From an uncultured Phycisphaera sp. (GTDB lineage Bacteria; Planctomycetota; Phycisphaerae; UBA1845): a stretch of DNA of 64,000 bases. Below, piece after piece: positions 19,522 through 55,340 of the stretch; the first letter of the stretch is position 1, and every line of letters begins with the position of its first letter. Where the stretch lies: assembly GCA_964486335.1 (NCBI GenBank), contig CAZAMB010000005.1:100008-164007 (forward strand), in the 5' to 3' direction. The position numbers and the translations under genes were made by a program. The notes below the pieces were generated by a model. The model saw only the letters and a list, made by a program, of their open reading frames with translations. It was not told the origin of the DNA and ran no database searches.

Positions 19522-19608
<87 letters not shown>

Positions 19609-42309: not shown

Positions 42310-42381
42310 GCGGGTGTAGCTCAGTGGTAGAGCGTCACGTTGCCAACGTGAATGTCGAGGGTTCGAGCCCCTTCACCCGCT
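42310..42381 (+). tRNA. tRNA-Gly (anticodon GCC)
   Basis: GCGGGTGTAGCTCAGTGGTAGAGCGTCACGTTGCCAACGTGAATGTCGAGGGTTCGAGCCCCTTCACCCGCT. Acceptor GCGGGTG/CACCCGC, anticodon loop TTGCCAA; no encoded CCA. Confidence 0.9.
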
Positions 42382-44055: not shown

Positions 44056-45465
44056 GTGCCATCGAAAAGTGTTTGGCTGAGGTTTTTCTGTGAAGGCCGT
44101 TGCCTTTCGAGGGCCGCGCTGGCGCGGTCGCTTGCGGACCAAGGCGTATCGGTCGTGGATCCTTTGTCAGAGCGCGAGTCCGGCCCCGGAATTGTCGTAT
44201 TCCAAATTGTTAATTCCGAGCTCTGTGAGCTGATGTCCAAAGTCTCATGTTGTGGTTCGGAACGAGTGCTCGCTTTGGCCGATACTCCATCTGTACTTAA
44301 AAAAGGAGACGTTTGGCGCCTTTTGCACGCCGGCGCGGCGGATGTATTTGATTGGGTGGAATCGGCCAATCCGGCACGGGAGATCGCGATCCGGTTGACA
44401 CGTTGGACCGAGGTCGACGAAATTGTCAAATCATCTCTGGTTCGGGAAAACCTGATTGGACATAGTCGAATTTGGAACGACCTCCTTCGACAAATCGTCG
44501 AAGTAGCGCGATTTTCCGAAGCCTCGATTCTGATAACAGGAGAGAGTGGAACCGGTAAGGAATTGATTGCCCGTTTGATCCATACACTCGATGCCCGGCC
44601 AGACAAAGGTGAACTCGTCGTGCTCGACTGCACAACGATTGTACCGGAACTCGCTGGAAGCGAATTCTTTGGTCACGAGCGTGGGGCCTTTACCGGAGCG
44701 ATTGTCGCACGTGATGGCGCCTTCGCGCTGGCGAACGGCGGCACGCTTTTCCTCGACGAAGTCGGAGACCTACCACGGACGTTGCAGGCGCAGTTGCTTC
44801 GCGTGATACAGGAACACACCTATAAACGTGTAGGAGGCAACCAATGGTGCCAGTCGCATTTTCGATTGTTGTGTGCCACGAACAAGGACTTGACGGTTGA
44901 GGTGAAGGAAGGGCGATTTCGCGCCGACTTGTACTACCGAATTGCAGATTGGACGATTCGATTGCCCCCACTTCGTGACCGTACCGAGGACATTCCCCTG
45001 TTGGCTCGACACTTCATCCAAGCCCATGGCCACCATCGGAGCGATTTCAATTCCGAAGTGACCGAGTATCTGTTGTCTCGGGACTACCCGGGAAACGTTC
45101 GCGATCTGAAACAAGTGGTGGCGCGAATGAGCCATCGACACGTTGGCCAGGGCGAAATCACCGTCGGAGCGATCCCGCCCACGGACCGGCCTCAGGCGGA
45201 GAGTCCGTTGGATAGATGGAGCGACAGAGTGTTCGAACTACCGGTTCGACACTCTCTGGCAGTTGGCGTGGGACTGAAGGAAATCGGCCGAATTGCCGAG
45301 GAGACCGCCGTTCAGATCGCTCTCGCGGAAGAAGGCGGAAATCTGCAGCGAGCCGCTCGACGATTGAAAGTGTCGGATCGCGCCTTGCAGCTCCGACAAG
45401 CCAACGGACGAGGACCCAAGGAAGCGCCCAGCGACCCCGTCATCGAGGGACGGACGCCTGCGTAG
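44056..45465 (+). CDS. sigma-54-dependent transcriptional activator (bEBP) with degenerate N-terminal receiver-like domain
   Basis: AAA+ sigma-54 interaction domain (ITGESGTGKELIARLIH, GAFTGA, ESELFGHE-like FFGHERGAF), C-terminal Fis-type HTH. The N-terminal ~130 aa resemble a receiver but lack an obvious phospho-acceptor Asp. GTG start at 44056. Confidence 0.85.
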   Translation: MPSKSVWLRFFCEGRCLSRAALARSLADQGVSVVDPLSERESGPGIVVFQIVNSELCELMSKVSCCGSERVLALADTPSVLKKGDVWRLLHAGAADVFDWVESANPAREIAIRLTRWTEVDEIVKSSLVRENLIGHSRIWNDLLRQIVEVARFSEASILITGESGTGKELIARLIHTLDARPDKGELVVLDCTTIVPELAGSEFFGHERGAFTGAIVARDGAFALANGGTLFLDEVGDLPRTLQAQLLRVIQEHTYKRVGGNQWCQSHFRLLCATNKDLTVEVKEGRFRADLYYRIADWTIRLPPLRDRTEDIPLLARHFIQAHGHHRSDFNSEVTEYLLSRDYPGNVRDLKQVVARMSHRHVGQGEITVGAIPPTDRPQAESPLDRWSDRVFELPVRHSLAVGVGLKEIGRIAEETAVQIALAEEGGNLQRAARRLKVSDRALQLRQANGRGPKEAPSDPVIEGRTPA

Positions 45466-46282
45466 CCGGCGAAGGTTGGAGCCATGGCTCATTTGGCTCG
45501 ACCATCGGTCTGGAGGGCTTGGCGCCAAAGTGAACGGAACCGACGGGGTTTCGCGAGACTTGGGAAATGAGCCTCAGGATATTCCCGCCGAGAACAAGTC
45601 GCGCGTACTGGGGCGACATGCCAAGCGCTCGAACCTTGGCCAACTCGACGCCAGGATGCAACCAAGGACCGTCGGAACCAAACAGAATTTTTCTTGCGCC
45701 GGCACGATGAAGCGCTTCTTCGAGCAGATCGAACCTTCTTACACCGGACGTATCGGTATGGACATTGGGGTAACGAGTCAGTATGTCCAGGAACGCTCGC
45801 TGGGCGCGCCAGTCGTCTGCGAAGCTGCCCAGATGCGGGATAATGAAATTGACGCCGGCGTATTCCGAAGCGATCAACTCTACCTGCGAGACCTCGCCCA
45901 TCACATCGTAGAGGATGGGCAATGACCAGCGTTTCGCGGCTGCGCAAACCTCTCTTGTGATGGAAGCGTTGTACCGATGGACCTTGATTCCGCGAAATCC
46001 ATGCACGTGCACCGCCTCGTCGATCATCGCCTGCATTCGACCCCGGTCGGCATGTGGGTGGACGAAGGCAAAGCCGATAAAACGACCATTGGATTGAGCG
46101 ACAATTCTCGCCACTTCGCGGTTGGCGGTTCGGTAGTCGGAATGAAACGCAGGGAAGAGTACAGTTCGGCGAATCCCGGCCGCGTCGGCCCGAGCAATGT
46201 ACTTCCCAAGCGGCGCAGCGGTGTCCCAGGGACCCGTCAATCCGTCTCCGCGACCGGCATGGCAATGGCAGTCAATGATCAT
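45440..46282 (-). CDS. amidohydrolase-2 family TIM-barrel metal-dependent hydrolase
   Basis: MIIDCHCHAG (HxH) N-terminus, later His and Asp ligands (FIIPHLG, FGSDGPW). Confidence 0.8.
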   Translation of the reverse strand: MIIDCHCHAGRGDGLTGPWDTAAPLGKYIARADAAGIRRTVLFPAFHSDYRTANREVARIVAQSNGRFIGFAFVHPHADRGRMQAMIDEAVHVHGFRGIKVHRYNASITREVCAAAKRWSLPILYDVMGEVSQVELIASEYAGVNFIIPHLGSFADDWRAQRAFLDILTRYPNVHTDTSGVRRFDLLEEALHRAGARKILFGSDGPWLHPGVELAKVRALGMSPQYARLVLGGNILRLISQVSRNPVGSVHFGAKPSRPMVEPNEPWLQPSPATQASVPR

Positions 46283-46442: not shown

Positions 46443-47447
46443 TTATAGAATCGCACCCGATCGAGATTTGAACCAGGGGGTCAACCGTCTGGCGCCGTCC
46501 AGATTCAGTTCGGTGTGAATGTGATTCGTATGCGGACTAGGGCCAGCATAGTTTCCGTCCTTTCGGCCACTCCGTGAACCATTCCATTTGATACGATTCC
46601 AAATAACGAACTGAATTCCGATGGCCGAAGCATTTTGTACAAGCCAGTTCGCTATCGGATCTCCGACGGCGGAGTTTGCTTGGTGATCTATTTCGCGAAT
46701 CATGATGTCGAGAGCGCGCCCCACCCCGTGAACGGAGGTTTCTGACGGAGTTGCTGAATTAAATCGACATGCATAACCACCGACGGAATCAACGCCTGGA
46801 AACGTCCTTCGTATATAGGTTCCCAGTTCGGCCGCGCCAGGTGTAAACGTGCCGCTGCAATTGCGTCCATTGGCCCACGGTGGAGGACTATCATAGCGAA
46901 CAAACTGTGCTTCGCCGGCAGCGCGAACGTCGGCGGGTAGCACCCATTTCTCGCTCGAAATCGACGGGCTCGGAGAATCCGGCATACTTCCCGTGAGTCG
47001 CTCCCAGGTCCGTCTGCCGACAATGCCGTCAACCGTCAAGCCGTTCGCTCGCTGAAATGTCAGTACCGCCGCTCTCGTAAGGGGACCGAAGGCCCCATCC
47101 TCAGAAAGGCGGCTTTGTCCGGGCGCGGCGTTAGTCGCAATCCAAGCATTAAGTCGTCTTTGCAATTCGATGACAGCCGCTCCGCGCGAACCGGTTCGCA
47201 GCGTTGGCCAAGTTGGTGACTCGTTGAGAATCTCGTCGAACGATAACTCGTCAAGACCAAGTTCATGACCAGGGGACTGCTCAATTTGAAGTACACCGGG
47301 CAAGATCTCATCCAGCTCGGTTGAAAATGGCGATTGATGATCCAGCGGCAGGATGATGTTGCGGCCATGTCGAAACCAGCGGCCGCCTCGTTTTGCACGC
47401 AGGCCACTTGTTTTTCTTACAGAAGATGATGCGCGCAGTCTGTTCAT
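46443..47447 (-). CDS. endolysin-like protein: peptidoglycan-binding domain (PG_binding_1) plus LAS/M15-type metallopeptidase-like C-terminal domain
   Basis: LTVDGIVGRRTWERL is the PG_binding_1 signature. SVHGVGRALDIM and HTNHIHTE resemble LAS-peptidase zinc ligands (SxHxxGxAxD ... H). ATG at 47447 overlaps the upstream stop (ATGA). Residues ~20-35 carry the GRWFRHGRNIILPL motif. Confidence 0.6.
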   Translation of the reverse strand: MNRLRASSSVRKTSGLRAKRGGRWFRHGRNIILPLDHQSPFSTELDEILPGVLQIEQSPGHELGLDELSFDEILNESPTWPTLRTGSRGAAVIELQRRLNAWIATNAAPGQSRLSEDGAFGPLTRAAVLTFQRANGLTVDGIVGRRTWERLTGSMPDSPSPSISSEKWVLPADVRAAGEAQFVRYDSPPPWANGRNCSGTFTPGAAELGTYIRRTFPGVDSVGGYACRFNSATPSETSVHGVGRALDIMIREIDHQANSAVGDPIANWLVQNASAIGIQFVIWNRIKWNGSRSGRKDGNYAGPSPHTNHIHTELNLDGARRLTPWFKSRSGAIL

Positions 47448-48604
47448 GACCTGACTCCTTGGTTTAGGGACAAAGTGGAACCGTAAGATTCCCCGGCGGC
47501 TGAATTCTCGAGTTTCAATTGGCGTGCGCGCGCCAGCGCTTGGCACGCTGAACTGATGTCAATTGGGTTGTGATCGGCGTTGATCAGAAAGGCGATGTTT
47601 GCCCGTGCAGGTCTTTGAACCGAAAGCAGTACCGTTTGGACCCCCATACCCCTAAGCCGACCGGTCATTCTCCTTGCTTCGCCTGACGACCGAAACGACA
47701 ATATCTGCACAGGGAAGAGTCCCGGAGATGGCGTGAATCCTGCCGATCGTGTTCCGGCACGAAATCGTCGTACATTGGAGAGGAGCTGCGATCGTCGTGA
47801 GTTGCCGATGCGCTCGTTGGCCGTCAGCGCGTTCGTGGCAGCCCTGATGGACGCCTGGGAAGGCGGACTGCAATGAACTCGAGTCTCGCTGCGCGTTGCA
47901 AACTGCTCGACAATGTCACCGCGACTCGACAGAGCGGCCACCGGCGCTCCGAATCCCTTGGCCAGGGAACTGATCAAGACCAATTCCTTCGCGCGAACGC
48001 CCCACCACTGGGAGCTTCCGCCTCCGCCTAGCCCATACGGCATTGTTCGCGTCGGTCGCGCGCCAAGAACGCCAAGCGCTTGAGTGTCATCTACGACAAC
48101 AAGACCCTTCACGGCTCGCATCTGACGAAGATAGCTTGTAAGAGGTGCAACCCGTCCGCATCGCATACAGGAACCATCAACGACAACCACCGGACGTGAT
48201 GCAGGCCCGCCAGCATCCTGAAGTGATCGACGCAATGACGAAGGGCAATAGTGCCGAAACGTCTGGACAGACGCGCCGCGCGCCGCCGCCCGTTCCAGTC
48301 CCCAGCGTCCGATGGGATAAAGTCCGCTATCCATGAAAAACCGTGCCCCTTCGTCGGCGAGCATGCCGAGGAAGTCCCAAAACAAGTGTAACGTCGAAGT
48401 TCCAAGCAAAGCCGCTTCACAGCCTTGCAGGTCGGCCAACAATTGGGCGACCCGCTTCGCCTCAGCTGACTCATCAAGTGCCGCAGGTCGGCCGGTCGTC
48501 AACTGCTCCCACGATCCCAGCGCCGAACTCGGGTGCCGCATGCCCAGATACTGGGCCGAGGTAAAGTCAAGCACTGGATGATTTCCGTCAACGACCTCTG
48601 CCAC
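47444..48604 (-). CDS. alpha-oxoamine synthase (BioF/KBL)-like class I/II PLP-dependent aminotransferase, divergent
   Basis: 386 aa, SLAKGFGAP matches the S-x-x-K PLP-lysine motif of the AONS/KBL family. Overall pattern of fold-type I enzyme. Confidence 0.65.
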   Translation of the reverse strand: MAEVVDGNHPVLDFTSAQYLGMRHPSSALGSWEQLTTGRPAALDESAEAKRVAQLLADLQGCEAALLGTSTLHLFWDFLGMLADEGARFFMDSGLYPIGRWGLERAAARGASVQTFRHYCPSSLRRSLQDAGGPASRPVVVVDGSCMRCGRVAPLTSYLRQMRAVKGLVVVDDTQALGVLGARPTRTMPYGLGGGGSSQWWGVRAKELVLISSLAKGFGAPVAALSSRGDIVEQFATRSETRVHCSPPSQASIRAATNALTANERIGNSRRSQLLSNVRRFRAGTRSAGFTPSPGLFPVQILSFRSSGEARRMTGRLRGMGVQTVLLSVQRPARANIAFLINADHNPIDISSACQALARARQLKLENSAAGESYGSTLSLNQGVRS

Positions 48605-50261
48605 CCGTCAATTGCGATTGCAGCCGTTGGCTTAATAGCACTGAAGGCATGGTCGCATTCACCATTCCACTCACCGGCTGAGCTGTCAGATCAACACCCG
48701 TAGCCGCGCGGTAAGCATGGAGGTAACCCTGAATTTCCGGCTTCCAATATCGAGCCCATGTTCGAGCGTGTTCCTGGTCTGTTAGGACATTCCAGTTTCC
48801 ATACCGGATCGAGAGCAGAATCCGTTCTCCGAGGACGCCCAAATCGCGAAAATGGGTGACCGTTACGTCGCTCCAACCCTGAACTCGTTTCATCGCGTCC
48901 ACGCGGCCCATCCACGGTTCCGCATAGGGCACCATGATCCGAGTGCCGAGGAATTCGCGCATTTCGGGTCGGGACAACAACCACTGCTGCATCATCATCT
49001 CGACTCGCGCTGTCCACGGCAGATCCCCGAATTGATTGTGCGCCCCTTGGGCAAGCAGCAAATGGACTTCCTTTAGCGCGTTGAGAAGAGGGAACCCGTC
49101 GGAAATCACGGTCGTGTCCGAGTCTTCCTGAAAAAACACGGAGCTGCGATACAAAAGATCGTGAAATGCTTCGAGAAACTTTGAACGGTTGTCGGCCGGA
49201 CGCATGGTCGAAACGGCCTTGCCCGCGAGCGCCAGTCCGTAGTGGTGGCTATACTCATAGGCTCGGCGAGGAACCGTGAGGCGATGGACTTCGTCCTGGA
49301 TGTACCCCCAAAGAAAGTTGTTGAGTGGCCTCAGCGGATCGATTTCCAACTCGGCCAATGGGTCGCGACCTGCGCCGCGCCGTTTGTTCTGGAATCGAAG
49401 GCTGATGGCGTTCAATGTTTGCGCCAACATCCCTTCTTCGTGCCAATACGACCAGATCAGTTCCAGCAGGCATGGACAAGAAGATTTCGCGCAGAGGATT
49501 TTCCCGTCACAGAAGGCCGAGGTAGCCGTCTGTTCTCGCCAATTCTCACCGAAGGCAGCGGTTAGAATCGTGTTCAAGTAATTGATATCCTTCGTTCGCA
49601 AGTAACTCGCCAGCTTGTCGCTAATGTCCTTCAGGGTGCCGCCCGGCAATGGGAAGTCATCCTCCAGACGTTTGACTTCAGATCCGGGGTCATCCTTTTC
49701 ACCCCATCCTTCGGTCTCGGCGCATGCGCATGGATCGCAATTACTCTTTTCACCTGCTTCTTGTTGTTTCTGAGCAGATGCGCCTTCGCGTGTTGTCGAT
49801 TCCGGATCGTCGGGTTTACGATAACAGGGATCAGGCTTTTTCTTTTCGGGGTCCAGAAACTCATCAGGATGCATTCCCTTTTGAAACGGCCCGCATGTGC
49901 AGCCGCAGCGGATGAGCAAAAACGTCTCCGTGGCCGTCTTCAAAAGGTCGTAGGCGTCCATGCCGTGGATGCAGGGTTCCTTGCTCAAACTTTCTCGCAG
50001 CCTTCGTTCCGGGCAGCAGTCGGGATCTTTGGTGTCTTTGTCGCAGAGCACTCGATCAATAAACTTCGCGTATTCCGAGAACGATGTCCGTTCCGAAGCA
50101 GTCCGAATCCACATCCATAACGGATACGTGTCGTCCCGTTTGAGCGGGGATCTCGAAAGCGAAAAGGTGCCGGACGCCGGCTTGGCAAAATCGCCAGAAA
50201 CACTTACCTTGACTCCCTTCGCCAGCTCTTTACCTTCAACAATAATCTTTCCTTCAGCCAT
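48588..50261 (-). CDS. hypothetical Cys-rich protein (557 aa), no recognisable family
   Basis: Strong RBS aaggag 7 nt upstream. Multiple CC/CxC clusters (DPDCCPE, IRCGCTCGP, CDPCACAE, CAKSSCPCL). Local GC is visibly lower than the flanking core genes. Confidence 0.6.
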   Translation of the reverse strand: MAEGKIIVEGKELAKGVKVSVSGDFAKPASGTFSLSRSPLKRDDTYPLWMWIRTASERTSFSEYAKFIDRVLCDKDTKDPDCCPERRLRESLSKEPCIHGMDAYDLLKTATETFLLIRCGCTCGPFQKGMHPDEFLDPEKKKPDPCYRKPDDPESTTREGASAQKQQEAGEKSNCDPCACAETEGWGEKDDPGSEVKRLEDDFPLPGGTLKDISDKLASYLRTKDINYLNTILTAAFGENWREQTATSAFCDGKILCAKSSCPCLLELIWSYWHEEGMLAQTLNAISLRFQNKRRGAGRDPLAELEIDPLRPLNNFLWGYIQDEVHRLTVPRRAYEYSHHYGLALAGKAVSTMRPADNRSKFLEAFHDLLYRSSVFFQEDSDTTVISDGFPLLNALKEVHLLLAQGAHNQFGDLPWTARVEMMMQQWLLSRPEMREFLGTRIMVPYAEPWMGRVDAMKRVQGWSDVTVTHFRDLGVLGERILLSIRYGNWNVLTDQEHARTWARYWKPEIQGYLHAYRAATGVDLTAQPVSGMVNATMPSVLLSQRLQSQLTGGRGR

Positions 50262-50285
50262 GATTTTCTCCTTCGTTCGACGGGA

Positions 50286-51614
50286 CTATGAGGCCCGTGC
50301 GATTGTTTTCTGTGTTCGACCGACGAAAACCCTGCTCCGCGAACAACGGACACAAGCGCCAAACGTGCTTCGAAGCGCCCAATGACTGAGCAATCCACTC
50401 ACGAGGCGACTCTCTTCAACCGGATTGAGGACGCCGTACGCTTTTGCTTGTCCCAATACGGCGAACACAAGCGACTCCGGAGCGGCCCGCAACTGTTCTG
50501 GAAATCGTCGCCAGGTCTGAAAGAGTCTCATTAGGCGATGTGGTTGCCGCTCCTCGACACCGAGGACTTCCCCCAGAGACAATCCCCTGAGAGACTTCGG
50601 TCGATGATGTGTCAACAACGCCACAAAACCAGGAATGCTTGCCTGTAACGCGTTGAATAGCGCGAAACGTCTTGGGTCAAGCTGCGTTGGCGGATAAAAC
50701 GCGTCCCACATCCTCGCGAAATGTTCCCATTGCGGATGTGGATAGAGCGCTTGTCCGACCGCACAACTGAGCTTGACCCTGATCCACGGGCTTGGGTGCG
50801 GATCGTCAAGGTTGATTCGAAAAACGAATCCACGCGGCAGACTGACTACACTCATCAATCCCATGGTGGACGTGATGCCCAACTTCGCCACGGACCAGAA
50901 GTCGGCAACAACCTCGGAAATCCACCGCTCCCAGGCCAGCCACGCAAACGCTTCTGCGCTCCCTTTCTTCCGCATTCCCAGAAGAATTGGCCGGAAGGAC
51001 GGAACCAGTTTCAGCAGTTCCGCTGCCTGATGACCGACCTCGTGGACCAAAGACGATGCGATTCCGCTGCCTACCATTCTCTCCCGCGGCACGCGGATAA
51101 TGGCAACGGGATTGCGCCCGCCCGTGGGCATCCGCGTTCGCGCCCGCCGTATCGCCGCGCCGGGTCCGCGGTCCAGGTAACAAATCACCGGCGGTTCCGA
51201 GTAGTAGCCGCCACCAAGGTGCAATGCATCGGCGGCAAACGCATCCAGTCCGGATAGCCAGATTCCCGTTTCATGTTCGCTGCGTTGAGTGATTGCATCC
51301 GCAAACAGATCAAGATCCGAAAGGACGGCGTTGAACCGCAATCGGAGGAGTACGAATCGCCGCTGCGCTTCCTCGGCGGAGGACAACCGCCCATTCGAAC
51401 CCTCAAGCCACGCCAGAAATGCAACGACTTGTTCCCGCAAATTGCGTCGCCCTTGAAGCAAGTACCCGTCGATGGCTCTTTGCGCGGTTGAGGAAATCGC
51501 CGCGGCGGTTACCGAAGTGATTTGCAGCGCGAATGGCTTCACGATAGCCAGTCGTGTCAGCAGGGCACGGGCTTCCTGCGCAAGAAAACAAGTTGTGTTG
51601 GAACGCATGGACAC
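50286..51614 (-). CDS. hypothetical protein with HExxH zinc-metallopeptidase-like motif (442 aa)
   Basis: LVHEVGHQAAEL motif. GTG/ATG start with gggag RBS. No family recognised. Confidence 0.6.
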   Translation of the reverse strand: MSMRSNTTCFLAQEARALLTRLAIVKPFALQITSVTAAAISSTAQRAIDGYLLQGRRNLREQVVAFLAWLEGSNGRLSSAEEAQRRFVLLRLRFNAVLSDLDLFADAITQRSEHETGIWLSGLDAFAADALHLGGGYYSEPPVICYLDRGPGAAIRRARTRMPTGGRNPVAIIRVPRERMVGSGIASSLVHEVGHQAAELLKLVPSFRPILLGMRKKGSAEAFAWLAWERWISEVVADFWSVAKLGITSTMGLMSVVSLPRGFVFRINLDDPHPSPWIRVKLSCAVGQALYPHPQWEHFARMWDAFYPPTQLDPRRFALFNALQASIPGFVALLTHHRPKSLRGLSLGEVLGVEERQPHRLMRLFQTWRRFPEQLRAAPESLVFAVLGQAKAYGVLNPVEESRLVSGLLSHWALRSTFGACVRCSRSRVFVGRTQKTIARAS

Positions 51615-51620
51615 GACTTG

Positions 51621-52289
51621 TCAAACTCCCAACAGAATGATGCGCCGACCGCGGCGAATCCAGCGACCGCTCTGCCCCGCACTCGAAGTGCTCGCCAGCC
51701 CAGTGTTCATGAGGCCTGGCGCATGACGTTGAGCCGCGGCGGCCAGGGCCGACTTTGCGACGATTCGGGGATCAGTGGTATGTGGGGATGCGGCGGCGTG
51801 CTGAGCAGCGGCGCCGGCCAAGCGAACGAATCGTCGGGCGATTTCAAATTCCTGATCTTCGCCGCTGAGGCCCTCAAATTCCAAGCCAAACAGCTTGCCG
51901 GCCGCGGATCCGGCGGCACTTCCAAGCGCCGTTCCGACACCGGGGATCGGGATGAGTGACCCCAGGGCGCCTCCGGCAATCGGCAGAACCTTCTTGGCGA
52001 TGCCTTTGAGGATTCCGCCAAGCGGACGGAAAACGCGAGGAGCGATGCGCTTAATCCCCTTCCAGGCGCGCTTGAACAATTTGCCGAGGAATTCATCGAT
52101 TTCCTGGTCGCTCGACAATGTGAGCAGTTCGGAGGCGAAATCAACTTCTTCGTCCTGCGTAAATGGTCCCTCGCCGGTCCCGAAATCTCCAAATTCTTCG
52201 AAGACTTCAAAATCGCTCGTTTCACCGCCGAAACCATCGGTTTCCCCGGTGTCTTCGAAATACGTCTGAGTCTGGTCTATGTCGTGCAT
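51621..52289 (-). CDS. hypothetical protein (222 aa): acidic N-terminus, Gly-rich amphipathic middle, C-terminal GRWIRRGRRIILLGV motif
   Basis: Strong RBS aggag 7 nt upstream. Paralogous to the next gene upstream. Confidence 0.55.
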   Translation of the reverse strand: MHDIDQTQTYFEDTGETDGFGGETSDFEVFEEFGDFGTGEGPFTQDEEVDFASELLTLSSDQEIDEFLGKLFKRAWKGIKRIAPRVFRPLGGILKGIAKKVLPIAGGALGSLIPIPGVGTALGSAAGSAAGKLFGLEFEGLSGEDQEFEIARRFVRLAGAAAQHAAASPHTTDPRIVAKSALAAAAQRHAPGLMNTGLASTSSAGQSGRWIRRGRRIILLGV

Positions 52290-52301
52290 GTGTTTCTCCT
52301 C

Positions 52302-53291
52302 TTAAATGCCAAGTGCTACGATGGTGTGTCCCGTACGCATCCACCTGCCGTTACCGGGCCGATGAATGGCATAACTGATCCTTGATTCATCCTCGGTTTG
52401 GTCTTCCTCAGGTGCGACAGGAGGCTTGTTGCTTATGCCGAAACCTTGGTCGATCGAATCCTGAATGACGCTTCCACAATGTTGGGCACATGCCGCACAA
52501 TCGCACTCGATTGGCTCCACGGGTTCCGGCGCGACACCGGCGGCCGAACGTGCCCCACCATTGCTCGATGACGACGGAAAAGAAGATGGCATGGACGTTT
52601 GCGCAGGCCGTGTTCCGCTGTCGGTCGGAGGAAATTCCGGCCCATGGGATGGCTTTCCTGTGCGATGCCGCCATCTCCGTTTGCGTCGAAGCTGCTCGCG
52701 AAGAACGCGGAGTGCTGTTCTAATGGCAGGCAAAGCAGCATTTCTCGCGTGTTGTGTACGAGACAGCCGTCTCGCCAACCGACCTGCCAATCGTCCAAAC
52801 CGAACAGCTCGACGTGCTCTCTCAAGGTCCTCTTCATCCGTTTCGAACCCCTCAAGACTGCCATCAATGAACTCCCGAAATTGAGCGTTCAAAGACTCTG
52901 ACGGATCGCCCATGGGCGACGACGCGATGAAGGGTACCCGGCGAATGCCATCAATTGCGCTCTGTACTTGCGGCGTGATGAACTTGGCCAGACTATTCGT
53001 CGTTGAAGTGAGTGACTCCCCGCATTTGCCTAATGTCGCGAGCACAGCTCTGGCAATCTCGTTGCCACTGACCGCTCCTAGCAGGTCAATTGCCAGTTCT
53101 TCTTCGTTTTTTTGGCGATCGTACATAGCACAATTCAATTGGATTGGACTCGCGCATGGGTCCGAACTCAGCTGTGAAAGAAAGCAAGTTCCATGCCAGA
53201 AAAACTGGGCCAATAATGGGCATTCTGGCGAAGTGTACTTCGCAACGACTGATGAACGGTGCAATTCAGCGAATCGCGCTTCGCCGATCAT
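52302..53291 (-). CDS. hypothetical protein, paralog of the 222 aa protein; C-terminal GNGRWMRTGHTIVALGI motif
   Basis: Shares an acidic segment (EGFETDEEDLERARRAVRFGRLAG vs EGLSGEDQEFEIARRFVRLAG) and the terminal motif with the downstream gene. Start is either 53291 or the internal Met near 53125. Confidence 0.5.
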   Translation of the reverse strand: MIGEARFAELHRSSVVAKYTSPECPLLAQFFWHGTCFLSQLSSDPCASPIQLNCAMYDRQKNEEELAIDLLGAVSGNEIARAVLATLGKCGESLTSTTNSLAKFITPQVQSAIDGIRRVPFIASSPMGDPSESLNAQFREFIDGSLEGFETDEEDLERARRAVRFGRLAGRLARRLSRTQHARNAALPAIRTALRVLREQLRRKRRWRHRTGKPSHGPEFPPTDSGTRPAQTSMPSSFPSSSSNGGARSAAGVAPEPVEPIECDCAACAQHCGSVIQDSIDQGFGISNKPPVAPEEDQTEDESRISYAIHRPGNGRWMRTGHTIVALGI

Positions 53292-53613: not shown

Positions 53614-53656
53614 TGTTTGACGCGCCGTGCCAGCGAGTGACATCGCGGTCCAACTC

Positions 53657-53863
53657 TTGACCCCAGCGCGAGTTACGACGACCGATTCTTGCCTTTCCCA
53701 GGTTTACATTTCATGGTCGCGTTTCGAGCTGTCTAAGCGGGCGGGCGTCCCGTACAGCGGAATCCACCGCTTTATCAGCTACGACCGCGACCTGACCCTG
53801 ACAACGGCGTCACGGCTGGCCGACGTGCTGGGGCTGGAATTGCGCCCTGCAAAAGGAAAGTAG
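53657..53863 (+). CDS. small XRE/Cro-type helix-turn-helix protein (possible excisionase/regulator)
   Basis: LSKRAGVPYSGIHRFISYDRDLTLTTASRLADVLGLEL matches the HTH_XRE pattern. Immediately upstream of the integrase. Start codon uncertain (candidate TTG at 53657). Confidence 0.4.
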   Translation: MTPARVTTTDSCLSQVYISWSRFELSKRAGVPYSGIHRFISYDRDLTLTTASRLADVLGLELRPAKGK

Positions 53864-53870
53864 GTGCATC

Positions 53871-55340
53871 ATGCCGAGAGTATTCCGGCAAAAATACACG
53901 CAACCGACGGCAGACGGAAAACGAAAAACGCGACAAAGCGCTAAGTGGTACGTCGAGTACCGCGACGCCCAAGGCATTCGGCGTCGGGTTCCGGGGTACA
54001 CCGACAAGGGCGCGACCCAACAGCTCGCGGCGGAGTTGGAACGAAACGCGGAGCGACAGCTCGCGGGTCTGGTCGATGCCTTTGCCGATCATCGAAAGCG
54101 CCCTTTGCGGGAACACCTGAATGATTGGCACGGCGCCTTGATCGCACGCGGCGCGTCGCGCGATTATGCCGACTTGGTCAAGAGCCGAGCGACCAAGGCG
54201 CTGACAGGTTGCGGATTCGTTTTCCTTGCCGACGTATCGGCATCCGACCTGCAAGCCTATCTGAGCAGGTTGCGAAGCGACGGACTGAGCATTCAAACGG
54301 TCAATTTCTACCTGCAAGCGGTCAAGCAGTTTTTCCGCTGGATGGTTGCTGACCGACGAATGCCCGACAACCCGGTCGCGTACCTGCGCGGGGGGAATGT
54401 CCGAACGGATCGTCGCCACGATCGACGCGCACTCGACACTGATGAACTGCGATCGCTACTCGACGCTACGAAGAATGGACCGGAACGGTTTGGCATGAAG
54501 CCTGATGCGCGGGCAATGCTTTATCAGCTTGCGGTTGAAACTGGTCTGCGGGCCACCGAACTGCGAACGCTGACTTGGGATTGTCTGGACTTGGAAGGCG
54601 ACCTGCCGACGGTGACGGTCAAGGCCGGTTATAGCAAACACCGGCGAACCGATACCCTTCCTTTAAAGCCGTCTACGACGCAAACGCTGGCCCGCTGGAG
54701 CAACGAACTCGGCAACGTGGACCCAACGGCACGCCTTTTCAACATGCCGCCCAAGGCCGCGAAAATGCTCCGAGCTGATCTGGCCGACGCTGGCTTACCG
54801 TATGCCGATGCTGATGGGCGCGTGGCCGATTTTCATTCCTTGCGGCACACTTACATTTCCAATCTGGCCCGTGGCGGTGTTCATCCAAAGATCGCCCAAC
54901 AGCTTGCCCGGCATTCGACCATTACGCTGACGATGGATCGCTATTCGCACACGGTTTTGGGCGAGCTATCAGACGCACTGTCGGCCCTGCCGGAGCTGGA
55001 CGCCACGCCATTCGAGCAAGAATCGGTGAGAGCGACCGGCACCTGCGGCAACCCCCAAAAATGCTTACCGATTTCCTTACCGAAATCCTTACCGAAACGC
55101 GGTGCGCGGCGAGAGTTGTCCCATTCATCGGCGTGCAATGATCCAACGCAAACCGCGAAATTCGACCGGCAAGAAAATCCTATGAATATAGGTATTTCCT
55201 GCGCTTCCACGCGTGACGACGCGGGTGTGTTCGTGGAACAATCCCGACTGCGCCCGGCGGGATTCGAACCTGCGACCCCCGGTTTAGGAAACCGGTGCTC
55301 TATCCAACTGAGCTACGAGCGCAACAATCGGCTAGTATAA
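53871..55340 (+). CDS. tyrosine-type site-specific integrase (phage integrase family)
   Basis: N-terminal SAM-like core-binding region and C-terminal catalytic box HSLRHTYIS (HxxR) ... LTMDRYSH (catalytic Tyr). The open frame continues ~130 aa past the Tyr, through the antisense tRNA-Arg, to the first stop at 55340. Confidence 0.85.
   Translation: MPRVFRQKYTQPTADGKRKTRQSAKWYVEYRDAQGIRRRVPGYTDKGATQQLAAELERNAERQLAGLVDAFADHRKRPLREHLNDWHGALIARGASRDYADLVKSRATKALTGCGFVFLADVSASDLQAYLSRLRSDGLSIQTVNFYLQAVKQFFRWMVADRRMPDNPVAYLRGGNVRTDRRHDRRALDTDELRSLLDATKNGPERFGMKPDARAMLYQLAVETGLRATELRTLTWDCLDLEGDLPTVTVKAGYSKHRRTDTLPLKPSTTQTLARWSNELGNVDPTARLFNMPPKAAKMLRADLADAGLPYADADGRVADFHSLRHTYISNLARGGVHPKIAQQLARHSTITLTMDRYSHTVLGELSDALSALPELDATPFEQESVRATGTCGNPQKCLPISLPKSLPKRGARRELSHSSACNDPTQTAKFDRQENPMNIGISCASTRDDAGVFVEQSRLRPAGFEPATPGLGNRCSIQLSYERNNRLV
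55249..55322 (-). tRNA. tRNA-Arg (anticodon CCT)
   Basis: Minus strand GCGCTCGTAGCTCAGTTGGATAGAGCACCGGTTTCCTAAACCGGGGGTCGCAGGTTCGAATCCCGCCGGGCGCA. Anticodon stem CCGGT/ACCGG with loop TTCCTAA, T-loop TTCGAAT, acceptor with one G-U pair. Confidence 0.8.

Follow-up and report, generated by a model that had tools for sequence, protein, structure and literature searches.

The window, by which we mean the whole 64-kb stretch of DNA analysed here, contains a minus-strand operon headed by a sigma-54 (-24/-12) promoter recognised from its sequence, TGGCATGGAACTTGC, at 53184-53198, some 58 nt ahead of the start codon (ATG) of the first gene. This gene, A (52302-53126, 274 aa), encodes a CxCxxCxxxC stretch and a C-terminal hairpin tag. 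An earlier sequence-only reading had placed this C-terminal motif correctly but had worked from a longer open reading frame; since the promoter falls inside that frame, the start of A is most likely the ATG at 53126. Gene B follows on the same strand (51621-52289, 222 aa) and comprises an acidic N-terminus, a helical domain, a glycine zipper, a flexible linker and the tag. B shows conservation from end to end (57% mean column identity), its helical domain is confidently folded in the AF2 model, and its maximum 19-residue hydropathy of 1.54 leaves no classical transmembrane helix. The two proteins had been proposed as paralogues. They are indeed related, but only distantly: aligned to the B profile with hhalign, A scores E=1.7e-4 with a probability of 49%.

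Further along the minus strand lie an HExxH protein of 440-442 aa (50286-51614), the gene for which is always directly downstream of the B-like genes, and a Cys-rich protein of 557 aa (48588-50261), which belongs to the core of the cluster and joins a variable, Cys-rich N-terminal half to a conserved C-terminal domain of some 300 residues. They are followed by a PLP-dependent enzyme resembling BioF, Kbl and serine palmitoyltransferase (47444-48604, 386 aa), the Schiff-base lysine of which, K216, is at least 95% conserved among 54 orthologues. The stop codon of this gene overlaps, as ATGA, with the start of a signal-less cell-wall hydrolase of 334 aa (46443-47447), in which the tag (47343-47384) precedes an acidic spacer, a PG_binding_1 domain and a LAS-type peptidase domain (PF26571 'VldE'); exactly this product is on record at NCBI. 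The label 'endolysin-like' given to it earlier fits its domains but not its surroundings, which offer no phage context. An Amidohydro_2 metal hydrolase (45440-46282, minus strand, 280 aa) is another conserved member, with the HxH and other metal-site residues retained in 59 orthologues. Convergent with the operon, on the plus strand, is a sigma-54 enhancer-binding protein (EBP; 44056-45465) with an AAA+ domain and HTH_8, which matches Pfam Sigma54_activat at 1e-56, contains GAFTGA and is presumed to activate the promoter at 53184-53198. The locus thus has both a -24/-12 promoter upstream and an adjacent GAFTGA AAA+ activator, as a sigma-54 operon should. The three proteins singled out earlier are part of this larger, eight-gene module with its sigma-54 promoter and activator, which the sequence-only reading had missed.

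The starting point of this work was the observation of a 15-residue motif in three co-operonic proteins, and all three copies were found where they had been reported. Protein A ends in ...GNGRWMRTGHTIVALGI (motif at 52308-52349, minus strand) and B in ...QSGRWIRRGRRIILLGV (51627-51668, minus strand), while the PG_binding_1 hydrolase carries GGRWFRHGRNIILPLD at 47343-47384, that is, at residues 22-35 counted from the ATG at 47447, in agreement with the earlier estimate of residues ~20-35. In all six frames of the window the pattern G-R-W-x-R-x-G-x-x-I-x-L has only these three matches, all within the one minus-strand operon, and even looser patterns such as W.R.G..[IVL][IVL] return the same three places. 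From composition, 0.29 matches would be expected by chance for the relaxed pattern and 3e-8 for the consensus first proposed. The DNA encoding the copies is pairwise identical at only 21-27 of 42 positions (50-64%), and at third codon positions merely 3-7 of 14 match. A DNA repeat is thereby ruled out as the source of the motif, and the conservation lies at the protein level, as had been suggested.

The motif is also conserved beyond the window, with the consensus S-G-R-W-[IV]-R-R-G-x-x-I-[IV]-L-x-G-x, and orthologues of all three proteins keep it. Among the matches listed for B, the C-terminus is near-identical across 120 homologues; 119 of the 120 contain the strict pattern and the remainder near-variants. 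Two orthologues of A (P0371 and P0372) retain the tag at an overall identity of 34-39%, and at least 11 orthologues of the hydrolase have it too. Within the tag of B, G208, W210 and G214 are invariant and R209, R212, R213, I217 and G221 are present in at least 90% of the sequences. Across phyla the invariant G, W, R and G stand at unchanged distances from one another; in Chitinophagaceae the variants are uncharged (GTWFREGNRIVIEGA) but retain the G/W/R/G/I pattern. When 2.96 million six-frame residues of related loci were searched with the strict pattern, 129 matches appeared in the forward sequences, nearly all on the strand of the cluster, and none in the reversed sequences. Neither a comparable frequency in unrelated proteins nor a loss of the motif in the orthologues, either of which would have told against the first observation, was seen. 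Additionally, we scanned metagenomes with a DNA pattern, independently of homology to B. This yielded 133 matches, of which 111 are the full motif exactly at a C-terminus, and a B-like core was found in 103 of 113 C-terminal matches. The tag followed by x-G-x-stop occupies the extreme C-terminus in 92 of 107 instances. The tag is specific to one conserved gene cluster, and corresponds to no recognised motif.

This cluster is present in at least 325 species genomes from many bacterial phyla, monoderm as well as diderm, and its gene order is conserved across 80 genome loci from many phyla: a sigma-54 promoter, one to three tagged glycine-zipper helical proteins, the HExxH, Cys-rich and BioF-like PLP proteins, variable cell-wall hydrolases, Amidohydro_2 and the sigma-54 activator. 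In most related loci a TGGCAC-N5-TTGC element immediately precedes the first B-like gene, and in most the EBP gene adjoins the cluster. Some tagged loci, in Bacteroidota and elsewhere, lack the PLP enzyme. The cluster is conserved, horizontally spread and controlled by sigma-54 and its EBP, and its client proteins carry the tag. None of the glycine-zipper (including B), HExxH and Cys-rich families matched Pfam, NCBIfam or PDB, and we found no paper on any of them. Annotated clusters contain no shell-protein family and no NLR/STAND (NB-ARC, NACHT) protein; their only ATPase is the transcriptional activator, and neither channel or transporter families nor obvious immunity genes appear in them. 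A search of 2.9 million viral contigs found no full-length B, only matches to its glycine-zipper segment, and PHROGs matches were limited to PG-binding and peptidase domains and the glycine zipper.

That a short linear motif can be used at either terminus of co-operonic proteins holds in the window and also in the related clusters. Glycine-zipper proteins carry it at the C-terminus, and VldE/LAS-type, VanY, beta-lactamase-like and M35-like hydrolases at the N-terminus. The N-terminal tag on VldE/LAS-type hydrolases is found in the window and in at least 11 orthologues; at locus L086 both a VanY-type and a VldE-type hydrolase have it, at L001 a beta-lactamase-like protein does, and it also occurs on an Aspzincin_M35-like protein and on unknown domains. 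In Nitrosomonas, PG_binding_1 proteins are fused to a B-like region with the tag. The hydrolase cargo varies and is polymorphic, whereas the core around which it is grouped is conserved. Hydrolase homologues within clusters are without signal peptides, whereas distant homologues have signal-peptide or lipoprotein-like N-termini (P0339, the sole one checked for context, lies outside any cluster). The cluster hydrolases have lost their Sec signal peptides and bear instead the N-terminal tag or a fusion to a tagged B-like C-terminal region. Nonetheless, the hairpin is absent from most accessory hydrolases of related loci, which have an N-terminal FxFExxPF and an acidic run instead, so it is not the sole address label. 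No clear transmembrane helix was detected in any encoded protein, and neither a transmembrane segment nor a Sec signal in A, B or the hydrolase.

Structure prediction makes the tag a beta-hairpin tethered by a flexible linker. In the AF2 model of B, strands 209-213 and 216-220 (pLDDT about 82) follow a low-confidence linker, and C-terminal tags in general are preceded by 7-36 residues rich in G, A, S and R. In the AF2 register the W:L and R:I pairs would lie on one face of the hairpin, and this face would also show the highest conservation, at about 3.9 bits compared with 2.5. The tag has four to five Arg/Lys among its 15 residues, a net charge of roughly +4 to +5, the invariant Trp and an Ile/Leu cluster; its hydrophobic run is only about 5 residues and is followed, in N-terminal copies, by charged residues. 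Direct-coupling analysis of 155 B sequences (Meff 89) found no enrichment of hairpin pairs among the top pairs, and one high-ranking pair between hairpin and helix, V49-L219 (rank 6), a result that does not bear out docking onto B, whether in cis or in trans.

The HExxH protein has at least 5380 relatives; the 120 matches listed, drawn from several phyla, show 60-68% identity. H189, E190, H193, E232 and D236 are invariant in 34 sequences; E232-x-x-x-D236, an ExxxD 39 residues downstream of HExxH, is a gluzincin-like pattern. Both motifs are on predicted helices in the AF2 model, in which a two-stranded sheet (141-146, 169-174) stands just before the HExxH helix. Sequence and model are thus compatible with a gluzincin, with HExxH on a helix and a downstream Glu as putative third zinc ligand. 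The protein matched no family or fold, no known peptidase fold could be recognised, and it resembles no solved zincin in structure or sequence. The Cys-rich protein likewise had no Pfam or PDB match.

With the tag shown to exist, to be conserved and portable and to be specific to the cluster, we turn to its purpose. It is probably a shared docking or targeting label of membrane-active proteins and signal-less hydrolases. More specifically, our tentative preference, which we hold at slightly under even confidence, is for a portable tag for docking or recognition, through which clients would meet a common partner encoded by the cluster and act on the cell wall independently of Sec. What we infer about the receptor and about the physiological outcome is the following. 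The hairpin would present its conserved Trp/Arg/Ile/Leu face to a common binding site, for which the adjacent HExxH protein or else the helical domain of B itself is the most likely place. This binding would bring membrane-active proteins and hydrolases together for joint assembly and perhaps processing, and upon firing of the sigma-54 activator the hydrolases might reach the peptidoglycan without the Sec pathway, resulting in controlled lysis, wall remodelling or the release of lytic enzymes. A bolder claim, credible though we would not bet on it, is that the hairpin is the address label of an unrecognised machine, present in many phyla, that delivers membrane-permeabilising proteins and interchangeable hydrolases without Sec, Tat or any known secretion system. 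Such a machine would be built from the glycine-zipper A/B, HExxH and Cys-rich families, all without known relatives, would assemble on a sigma-54 signal and would constitute a new route for programmed lysis or for the release of lytic weapons. If true, thousands of environmental bacteria possess an unstudied eight-gene module, among them nitrifiers (Nitrosomonas, Nitrosospira, Nitrospira), Accumulibacter, Massilia, Janthinobacterium, planctomycetes, Chloroflexota and Acidobacteriota. The 15-residue tag would then serve as an experimental handle and as a simple sequence rule for finding new clients in any genome. Possible gains include a new way of delivering signal-less wall hydrolases, a new metallopeptidase-like fold and a new type of lysis or antagonism under sigma-54 control, and protein engineering might profit from a small portable tag that has its own receptor.

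Other readings of the tag deserve consideration. It is unlikely, but not far-fetched, that the hairpin is a processing signal, bound by the HExxH protein as an added beta-strand pair beside the active-site helix, with the protein acting as a metallopeptidase that cuts the linker or pro-region; the cut would activate or inactivate glycine-zipper proteins and hydrolases, much like leader or follower removal or zymogen activation. The invariant gluzincin-like residues, the modelled sheet before the HExxH helix, the position of the gene directly after the tagged genes and the flexible linkers or acidic spacers between tags and folded parts would all suit this role. The dissimilarity of the HExxH protein to any solved zincin does not, nor do the variable linkers, in which no conserved cleavage-site motif is visible, and strict placement at the extreme C-terminus (92 of 107) would be needless for cleavage. 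Somewhat more doubtful is direct anchoring, in which the cationic Trp hairpin would bind anionic lipids, or lipid II or the wall itself, and would thereby gather glycine-zipper proteins and hydrolases on the membrane's inner face. The charge, the Trp and the Ile/Leu cluster of the tag are appropriate for a peripheral anchor, and the membrane-targeting sequences of MinD, FtsA and MreB likewise work at either terminus on a flexible tether; moreover, the membrane or wall is where the clients have to act, and none has a transmembrane helix or signal peptide. However, the G/W/R/G spacing is far stricter than is usual for lipid-binding amphipathic segments, the uncharged Chitinophagaceae variants keep the pattern, and a hairpin rather than an amphipathic helix is predicted.

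We consider it improbable that the tag is an export signal routing clients through a glycine-zipper pore or a general host machine, with the hydrolases as secreted antibacterial effectors. Polymorphic cargo around a conserved core, a tag in place of signal peptides and tight sigma-54 control, which is typical of toxic products, are what one would expect of such a system; but in annotated clusters a further ATPase, a channel or transporter family and obvious immunity genes are all lacking, monoderm as well as diderm lineages have the cluster, and a short hydrophobic stretch in a mostly C-terminal tag makes no Tat signal. Very improbable, in our view, is templated co-aggregation, whereby an amyloid-like or beta-augmentation motif would nucleate the assembly of membrane-targeting effectors sharing it. 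The motif does have predicted beta-strand propensity, and putative membrane-active proteins end in it while products of neighbouring genes carry it N-terminally. Known amyloid motifs, in contrast, are longer and rich in Gly, Asn or Gln; the high charge of a single 15-residue hairpin speaks against amyloid, no cluster has an NLR or STAND protein, and the N-terminal copies are on hydrolases, not on sensors. Finally, the sequence-only reading had mentioned encapsulation peptides, and a short terminal peptide on a flexible linker, common to co-operonic proteins and usable at either end, does recall one. That it loads proteins into an encapsulin- or microcompartment-like shell is nevertheless hardly credible, because no annotated cluster has a shell-protein family.

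Our preferred reading, a docking tag, can be set against known systems. Cargo peptides of encapsulins and bacterial microcompartments (BMC) are, like the tag, short, terminal, co-encoded, attached by flexible linkers and movable between unrelated enzyme domains. They are, however, extended Gly/Ser/Leu-type peptides or amphipathic helices where the tag is a predicted basic beta-hairpin, their cargo consists of metabolic enzymes and not of membrane-active proteins and wall hydrolases, and the cluster encodes neither an HK97-fold encapsulin nor a BMC-domain protein. Fungal HET-s/NWD2 and bacterial BASS with Bell-domain effectors share the arrangement of a motif at the effector C-terminus and at the N-terminus of a nearby protein. 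The tag is shorter than these amyloid signalling motifs, highly charged and, in its N-terminal copies, on hydrolases; such a pair was rejected, since neither the window operon nor related clusters encode NB-ARC, NACHT or STAND proteins. T6SS MIX, T7SS LXG, T9SS CTD and T1SS signals also combine a conserved label with variable wall-degrading domains, but the MIX, LXG and CTD trafficking domains are far larger than 15 residues, and the cluster, found in monoderm and diderm phyla, has no secretion-apparatus genes and no recognised immunity genes. A Tat signal consists of an N-terminal S/T-R-R-x-F-L-K, an uncharged h-region of about 12-20 residues and a cleavage site; the C-terminal position of the tag in most clients and its hydrophobic run of about 5 residues rule this out. 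C-terminal sorting by sortase (LPXTG), PEP-CTERM, GlyGly-CTERM or T9SS CTD combines an N-terminal Sec signal with either a signature motif, transmembrane helix and basic tail or a beta-sandwich CTD; it was rejected as well, since A, B and the hydrolase lack both transmembrane segments and Sec signals. The tag ends one residue past a Gly and has 15 residues against about 80 in the beta-sandwich CTD, and NCBIfam and Pfam sorting-signal models gave no match.

RiPP systems resemble the cluster in their terminal recognition peptide (leader or follower), an HExxH protein and tailoring-type enzymes (PLP, amidohydrolase). B, a folded protein of 222 aa conserved throughout, is no RiPP precursor with a short hypervariable core, and no RRE/PqqD-like domain or known RiPP enzyme family was detected. 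The Psp (phage-shock) system, with its activator PspF and the membrane-binding helical effector PspA, is likewise a sigma-54 operon with an adjacent dedicated activator and helical proteins likely to act on membranes; it has no hydrolases, HExxH protein or common terminal tag, unlike the cluster, and B has no fold similarity to PspA/ESCRT-III. Phage holin-endolysin and type 10-like secretion, in turn, share with the cluster the tight gating of signal-less peptidoglycan hydrolases alongside small proteins with membrane-active or glycine-zipper segments. A holin-endolysin cassette was rejected, there being no phage context, no full-length B in viral contigs and no true transmembrane holin; what sets the cluster apart from such cassettes is its five further conserved genes (HExxH, Cys-rich, PLP, Amidohydro_2 and EBP), its hairpin tag and its sigma-54 control.

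Three proteins encoded in one operon share a 15-residue motif of the type G-R-W-x-R-x-G-x-x-I-x-L, which is very probably a recognition tag specific to a single system. The sequence-only reading had described the same motif in three co-operonic proteins, conserved as protein rather than as DNA, and six-frame scans of the window bear this out. Both its consensus and far more relaxed versions hit three sites and no others: the C-termini of A and B, two glycine-zipper helical proteins, and residues 22-35 of a PG_binding_1 hydrolase. Composition alone would give 0.29 matches to the relaxed pattern and 3e-8 to the consensus. The DNA encoding the three copies is 50-64% identical, with 3-7 of 14 third codon positions equal; since this is near random, the motif is kept at the protein level and a DNA repeat can be dismissed. 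Chance and low complexity are likewise ruled out by the six-frame scans, reversed-sequence controls and the composition expectation. Indeed, when related loci amounting to 2.96 million six-frame residues were scanned, the strict pattern matched 129 times forward and never in reverse (relaxed pattern: 134 and 1), almost always on the strand of the cluster.

A scan of metagenome contigs that is independent of homology to B, made with the back-translated core G-R-W-x-R-R-G-x-x-I returned 133 matches, of which 12 were partial chance matches. The other 121 had the full motif, exactly C-terminal in 111; a handful of N-terminal copies were borne by other enzyme domains. With the motif removed from the query, a B-like core was still recognised in 103 of the 113 C-terminal matches. 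By these scans the motif belongs almost exclusively to one system, and the finding is a real one: its statistics are overwhelming and many phyla keep it.

Orthologues retain the motif for A, B and the hydrolase alike, so the outcome that the sequence-only reading had named as refuting it, loss of the motif in orthologues, does not hold for any of the three. B has at least 1959 relatives by search, and each of the 120 listed closes with sGRWIRRGrkIiLLGV or something very like it, the stop usually one residue beyond the last Gly; no aligned sequence departs from G208, W210 or G214, and at least 90% keep R209, R212, R213, I217 and G221. A diverges from its paralogue B (hhalign E=1.7e-4) and is rare: 1.84 billion representative proteins yielded two relatives below E = 1e-10 and no more. 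These are 34-39% identical to it overall, yet their C-termini read GQGRWMRAGRNIVVLGI and GQGRWVRSGRNIVILGVP. For the hydrolase, at least 11 relatives (P0252, P0253, P0262, P0265, P0273, P0287, P0291, P0296, P0300, P0311 and P0314) carry the motif N-terminally, with an acidic stretch between it and PG_binding_1. Cys clusters, CxxC...CxxC or other, often stand just before the motif in A-like upstream paralogues (L001:9206-9970, with CPNC...CPKC; L014:1398-2111; L076:9012-9785), and A itself has the stretch ECDCAACAQHC (window 52380-52420). One subfamily closes with IV[IV]N[AC] and a 12-29-residue tail in place of LxG-x-stop.

The operon packs its genes tightly on the minus strand of the window, from 44 to 53.3 kb, and they stand 6-24 nt apart where they do not overlap. 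Along that strand lie A (ORF 52302-53291), B (51621-52289), an HExxH protein (50286-51614), a Cys-rich protein (48588-50261), a PLP enzyme (47444-48604), the hydrolase (46443-47447), whose start overlaps the PLP stop in an ATGA, and an Amidohydro_2 enzyme (45440-46282). Since the A ORF includes a sigma-54 -24/-12 promoter (53184-53198, minus strand), it is longer than the gene should be: A probably starts at the ATG at 53126, 58 nt downstream of the promoter, and spans 52302-53126. Beside the operon, a tyrosine integrase ORF (53871-55340, plus strand), preceded by a 78-aa ORF (53627-53863, plus strand), runs into tRNA-Arg(CCT) (55248-55323, minus strand), and the region from 42 to 54 kb dips slightly in GC content. 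A genomic island was considered and set aside, as no direct repeat (att) of the tRNA-Arg end of at least 14 nt was found within the window to define its borders. Two further tRNA genes, Ser(CGA) at 19522-19608 and Gly(GCC) at 42310-42381, are unrelated to the motif.

Relatives of B occur in at least 325 species genomes, from Chloroflexota, Planctomycetota, Nitrospirota, Verrucomicrobiota, Acidobacteriota and Entotheonella to Bacteroidota (Runella, Dyadobacter, Ferruginibacter), Actinomycetota (Nocardiopsis) and many Proteobacteria (Massilia, Janthinobacterium, Nitrosomonas, Nitrosospira, Cupriavidus, Thiothrix, Thauera). The loci keep one order of genes, which opens with one to three B-like genes, the HExxH and Cys-rich proteins and usually the PLP enzyme, and continues with optional extra B-like genes and cell-wall hydrolases, Amidohydro_2 and a sigma-54 enhancer-binding protein. 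This activator has a Sigma54_activat domain (1e-56), GAFTGA and HTH_8, and in most loci the first B-like gene is directly preceded by a -24/-12 promoter, TGGCAYG-N4-TTGC (L004, L007, L008, L013, L051, L073 and others). In the Chitinophagaceae/Ferruginibacter loci two B-like modules are fused into a protein of about 450 aa (L020:9365-10597, L035:1769-3127, L040:9368-10651, L057:9293-10678) with a single, nearly uncharged motif (GTWFREGNRIVIEGA, GNWYRDGNRIVIEGA), and the PLP gene is absent. The less basic motifs of Chitinophagaceae showed no simple pattern against N-terminal acidity in the same proteins.

The core proteins have no characterised relatives. A, B, the HExxH and the Cys-rich protein gave no match in Pfam, NCBIfam, PADLOC or the PDB; of the family databases, only PHROGs returned anything, weak matches to the glycine zipper of B. 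RefSeq and UniRef name the B homologues 'hypothetical protein', and the best plasmid match carries no annotation. AF2 models of the HExxH protein (pLDDT 81, pTM 0.83) and of B (pLDDT 76) had no specific structural neighbour, and neither the motif nor the cluster turned up in full-text searches of the literature. In viral contigs (L089-L168) we saw neither full-length B nor the cluster; phage origin was ruled out, as the only shared part is the glycine-zipper segment of B (~98-147), as in tape-measure/endolysin-associated proteins. The HExxH protein has at least 5380 relatives, the 120 listed being 60-68% identical and from several phyla, and H189-E-x-x-H193 and E232-x-x-x-D236 are invariant. 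A functional site may lie in its near-invariant Arg-rich loop at residues 149-177 (A-I-R-R-A-R-T-R-x-P-x-G ... R-x-P-R-E-R), which is modelled at low confidence and comes between the two strands ahead of the HExxH helix. The lysine of the PLP enzyme and the metal-site residues of the amidohydrolase are also conserved. The former enzyme is BioF/Kbl-like and keeps the Schiff-base lysine K216; its conserved D-D-T-Q stands where BioF has D-D-A-H, a difference that suggests divergent alpha-oxoamine-synthase-like chemistry.

The tag is portable between termini and domains. One related locus (L086) is an independent copy of the pattern seen in the window, with the tag C-terminal in two B-like proteins and N-terminal in a VanY-type and a VldE-type hydrolase, both transcribed divergently. 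Elsewhere it stands at the N-terminus of a beta-lactamase-like protein (L001) and, on metagenome contigs, of an Aspzincin_M35-like protein, of a PG_binding_1 protein with an unknown domain and of another unknown domain. A fusion in Nitrosomonas joins a PG_binding_1 protein to a tag-bearing, B-like C-terminal region (L033:9041-11011, L044:10034-11977, L083:9077-10579); in the first two the tag is followed by about 150 further residues, the only clear internal placement seen. The cluster-associated hydrolases lack signal peptides, whereas more distant members of the same peptidase family carry typical signal peptides or lipoboxes at the N-terminus, and the one whose context was checked (P0339) lies in an unrelated neighbourhood. 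In the cluster, the Sec signal has thus been replaced by the tag or by a second N-terminal motif.

That second motif is found instead of the tag in most accessory hydrolases of related clusters. It reads F-x-F-E-x-x-P-F (or ELSPEFEF), followed by an acidic run and an Arg/Pro-rich spacer (L002:16344-18224, L004:14865-16445, L012:7276-8580, L029:10574-11407, L045:13672-14742). In the window a similar SPFSTELDE follows the tag of the hydrolase (47250-47340), the N-termini of B proteins carry a related ESPFxExEEMELAxELL, and some proteins in L218, L237 and L251 have both motifs. This motif might serve as another address label, or else as the partner of the tag.

In the AF2 model of B, a confident helical domain (residues 41-100 and 121-195), interrupted by a low-confidence glycine-zipper loop (102-120), is followed by a low-confidence linker and then by the tag, folded as a two-stranded hairpin (209-213 and 216-220, pLDDT ~82). 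The linker is rich in Gly, Ala, Ser and Arg and measures 7-36 residues (median 19). W210:L219 and R212:I217 would pair across the strands on one face, and this face, as we assign it from the model, holds ~3.9 bits per position against ~2.5 on the other. At an Meff of 89, the coupling analysis of the hairpin against the helical domain returned one high pair between the two (V49-L219, rank 6) and no enrichment of hairpin pairs among those ranked highest. As modelled, a tethered hairpin with a single conserved face looks like a docking element.

The tag thus occurs on two classes of client, glycine-zipper helical proteins and signal-less wall hydrolases. We tentatively propose that the hairpin docks both onto one common, cluster-encoded site, for Sec-independent action of the hydrolases on peptidoglycan. 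Docking would unite membrane-active proteins and hydrolases, perhaps presenting them for processing, and once the activator fires the hydrolases would reach peptidoglycan without Sec. Two receptor candidates stand out: the HExxH protein, because its gene invariably comes next, its sequence is the best conserved and a sheet of two strands flanks the HExxH helix in its AF2 model, and the helical domain of B, which would give head-to-tail assemblies open to hydrolases. Speaking against docking are the fold of the HExxH protein, not recognisably a zincin, the preference of most accessory hydrolases for the other motif, and the lack of a clear transmembrane helix in any cluster protein. A processing signal for the HExxH enzyme would overlap with docking, and we consider it an unlikely account of the tag.

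Somewhat less probable still is a cationic, Trp-containing anchor to membrane or wall: the charge, the Trp and the independence of position would fit, but not the strict G/W/R/G spacing, which even the uncharged Chitinophagaceae variants keep. The polymorphic cargo might recall an export signal; this seems improbable, given that no apparatus is encoded and that the cluster occurs in both monoderms and diderms. An amyloid-type templating motif is very improbable for so short and highly charged a sequence with no NLR, and an encapsulation peptide, with the shell protein absent, is the most remote of these readings. Tat signals, GW modules and sorting signals were ruled out by length, position and absent TM/Sec elements.

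Our data indicate an undescribed multi-gene system, for which the tag offers a simple experimental handle. In its logic the tag is like cargo-loading peptides and the trafficking tags of polymorphic effectors, the gene set is like a holin-endolysin cassette, but with five extra conserved genes, and the regulation is like that of Psp-type sigma-54 operons. Set against the known classes, however, the system lacks a defining part each time: the shell of encapsulation systems, the NLR of amyloid signalling, the secretion apparatus of effector trafficking, the TM holin and phage context of the cassette, the enzymes of RiPP systems and, in the tag itself, the architecture of Tat and sorting signals. 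Since its core families have no characterised relatives, we rate the system as categorically new, its function being inferred, while a shared terminal address tag is, as a principle, familiar.
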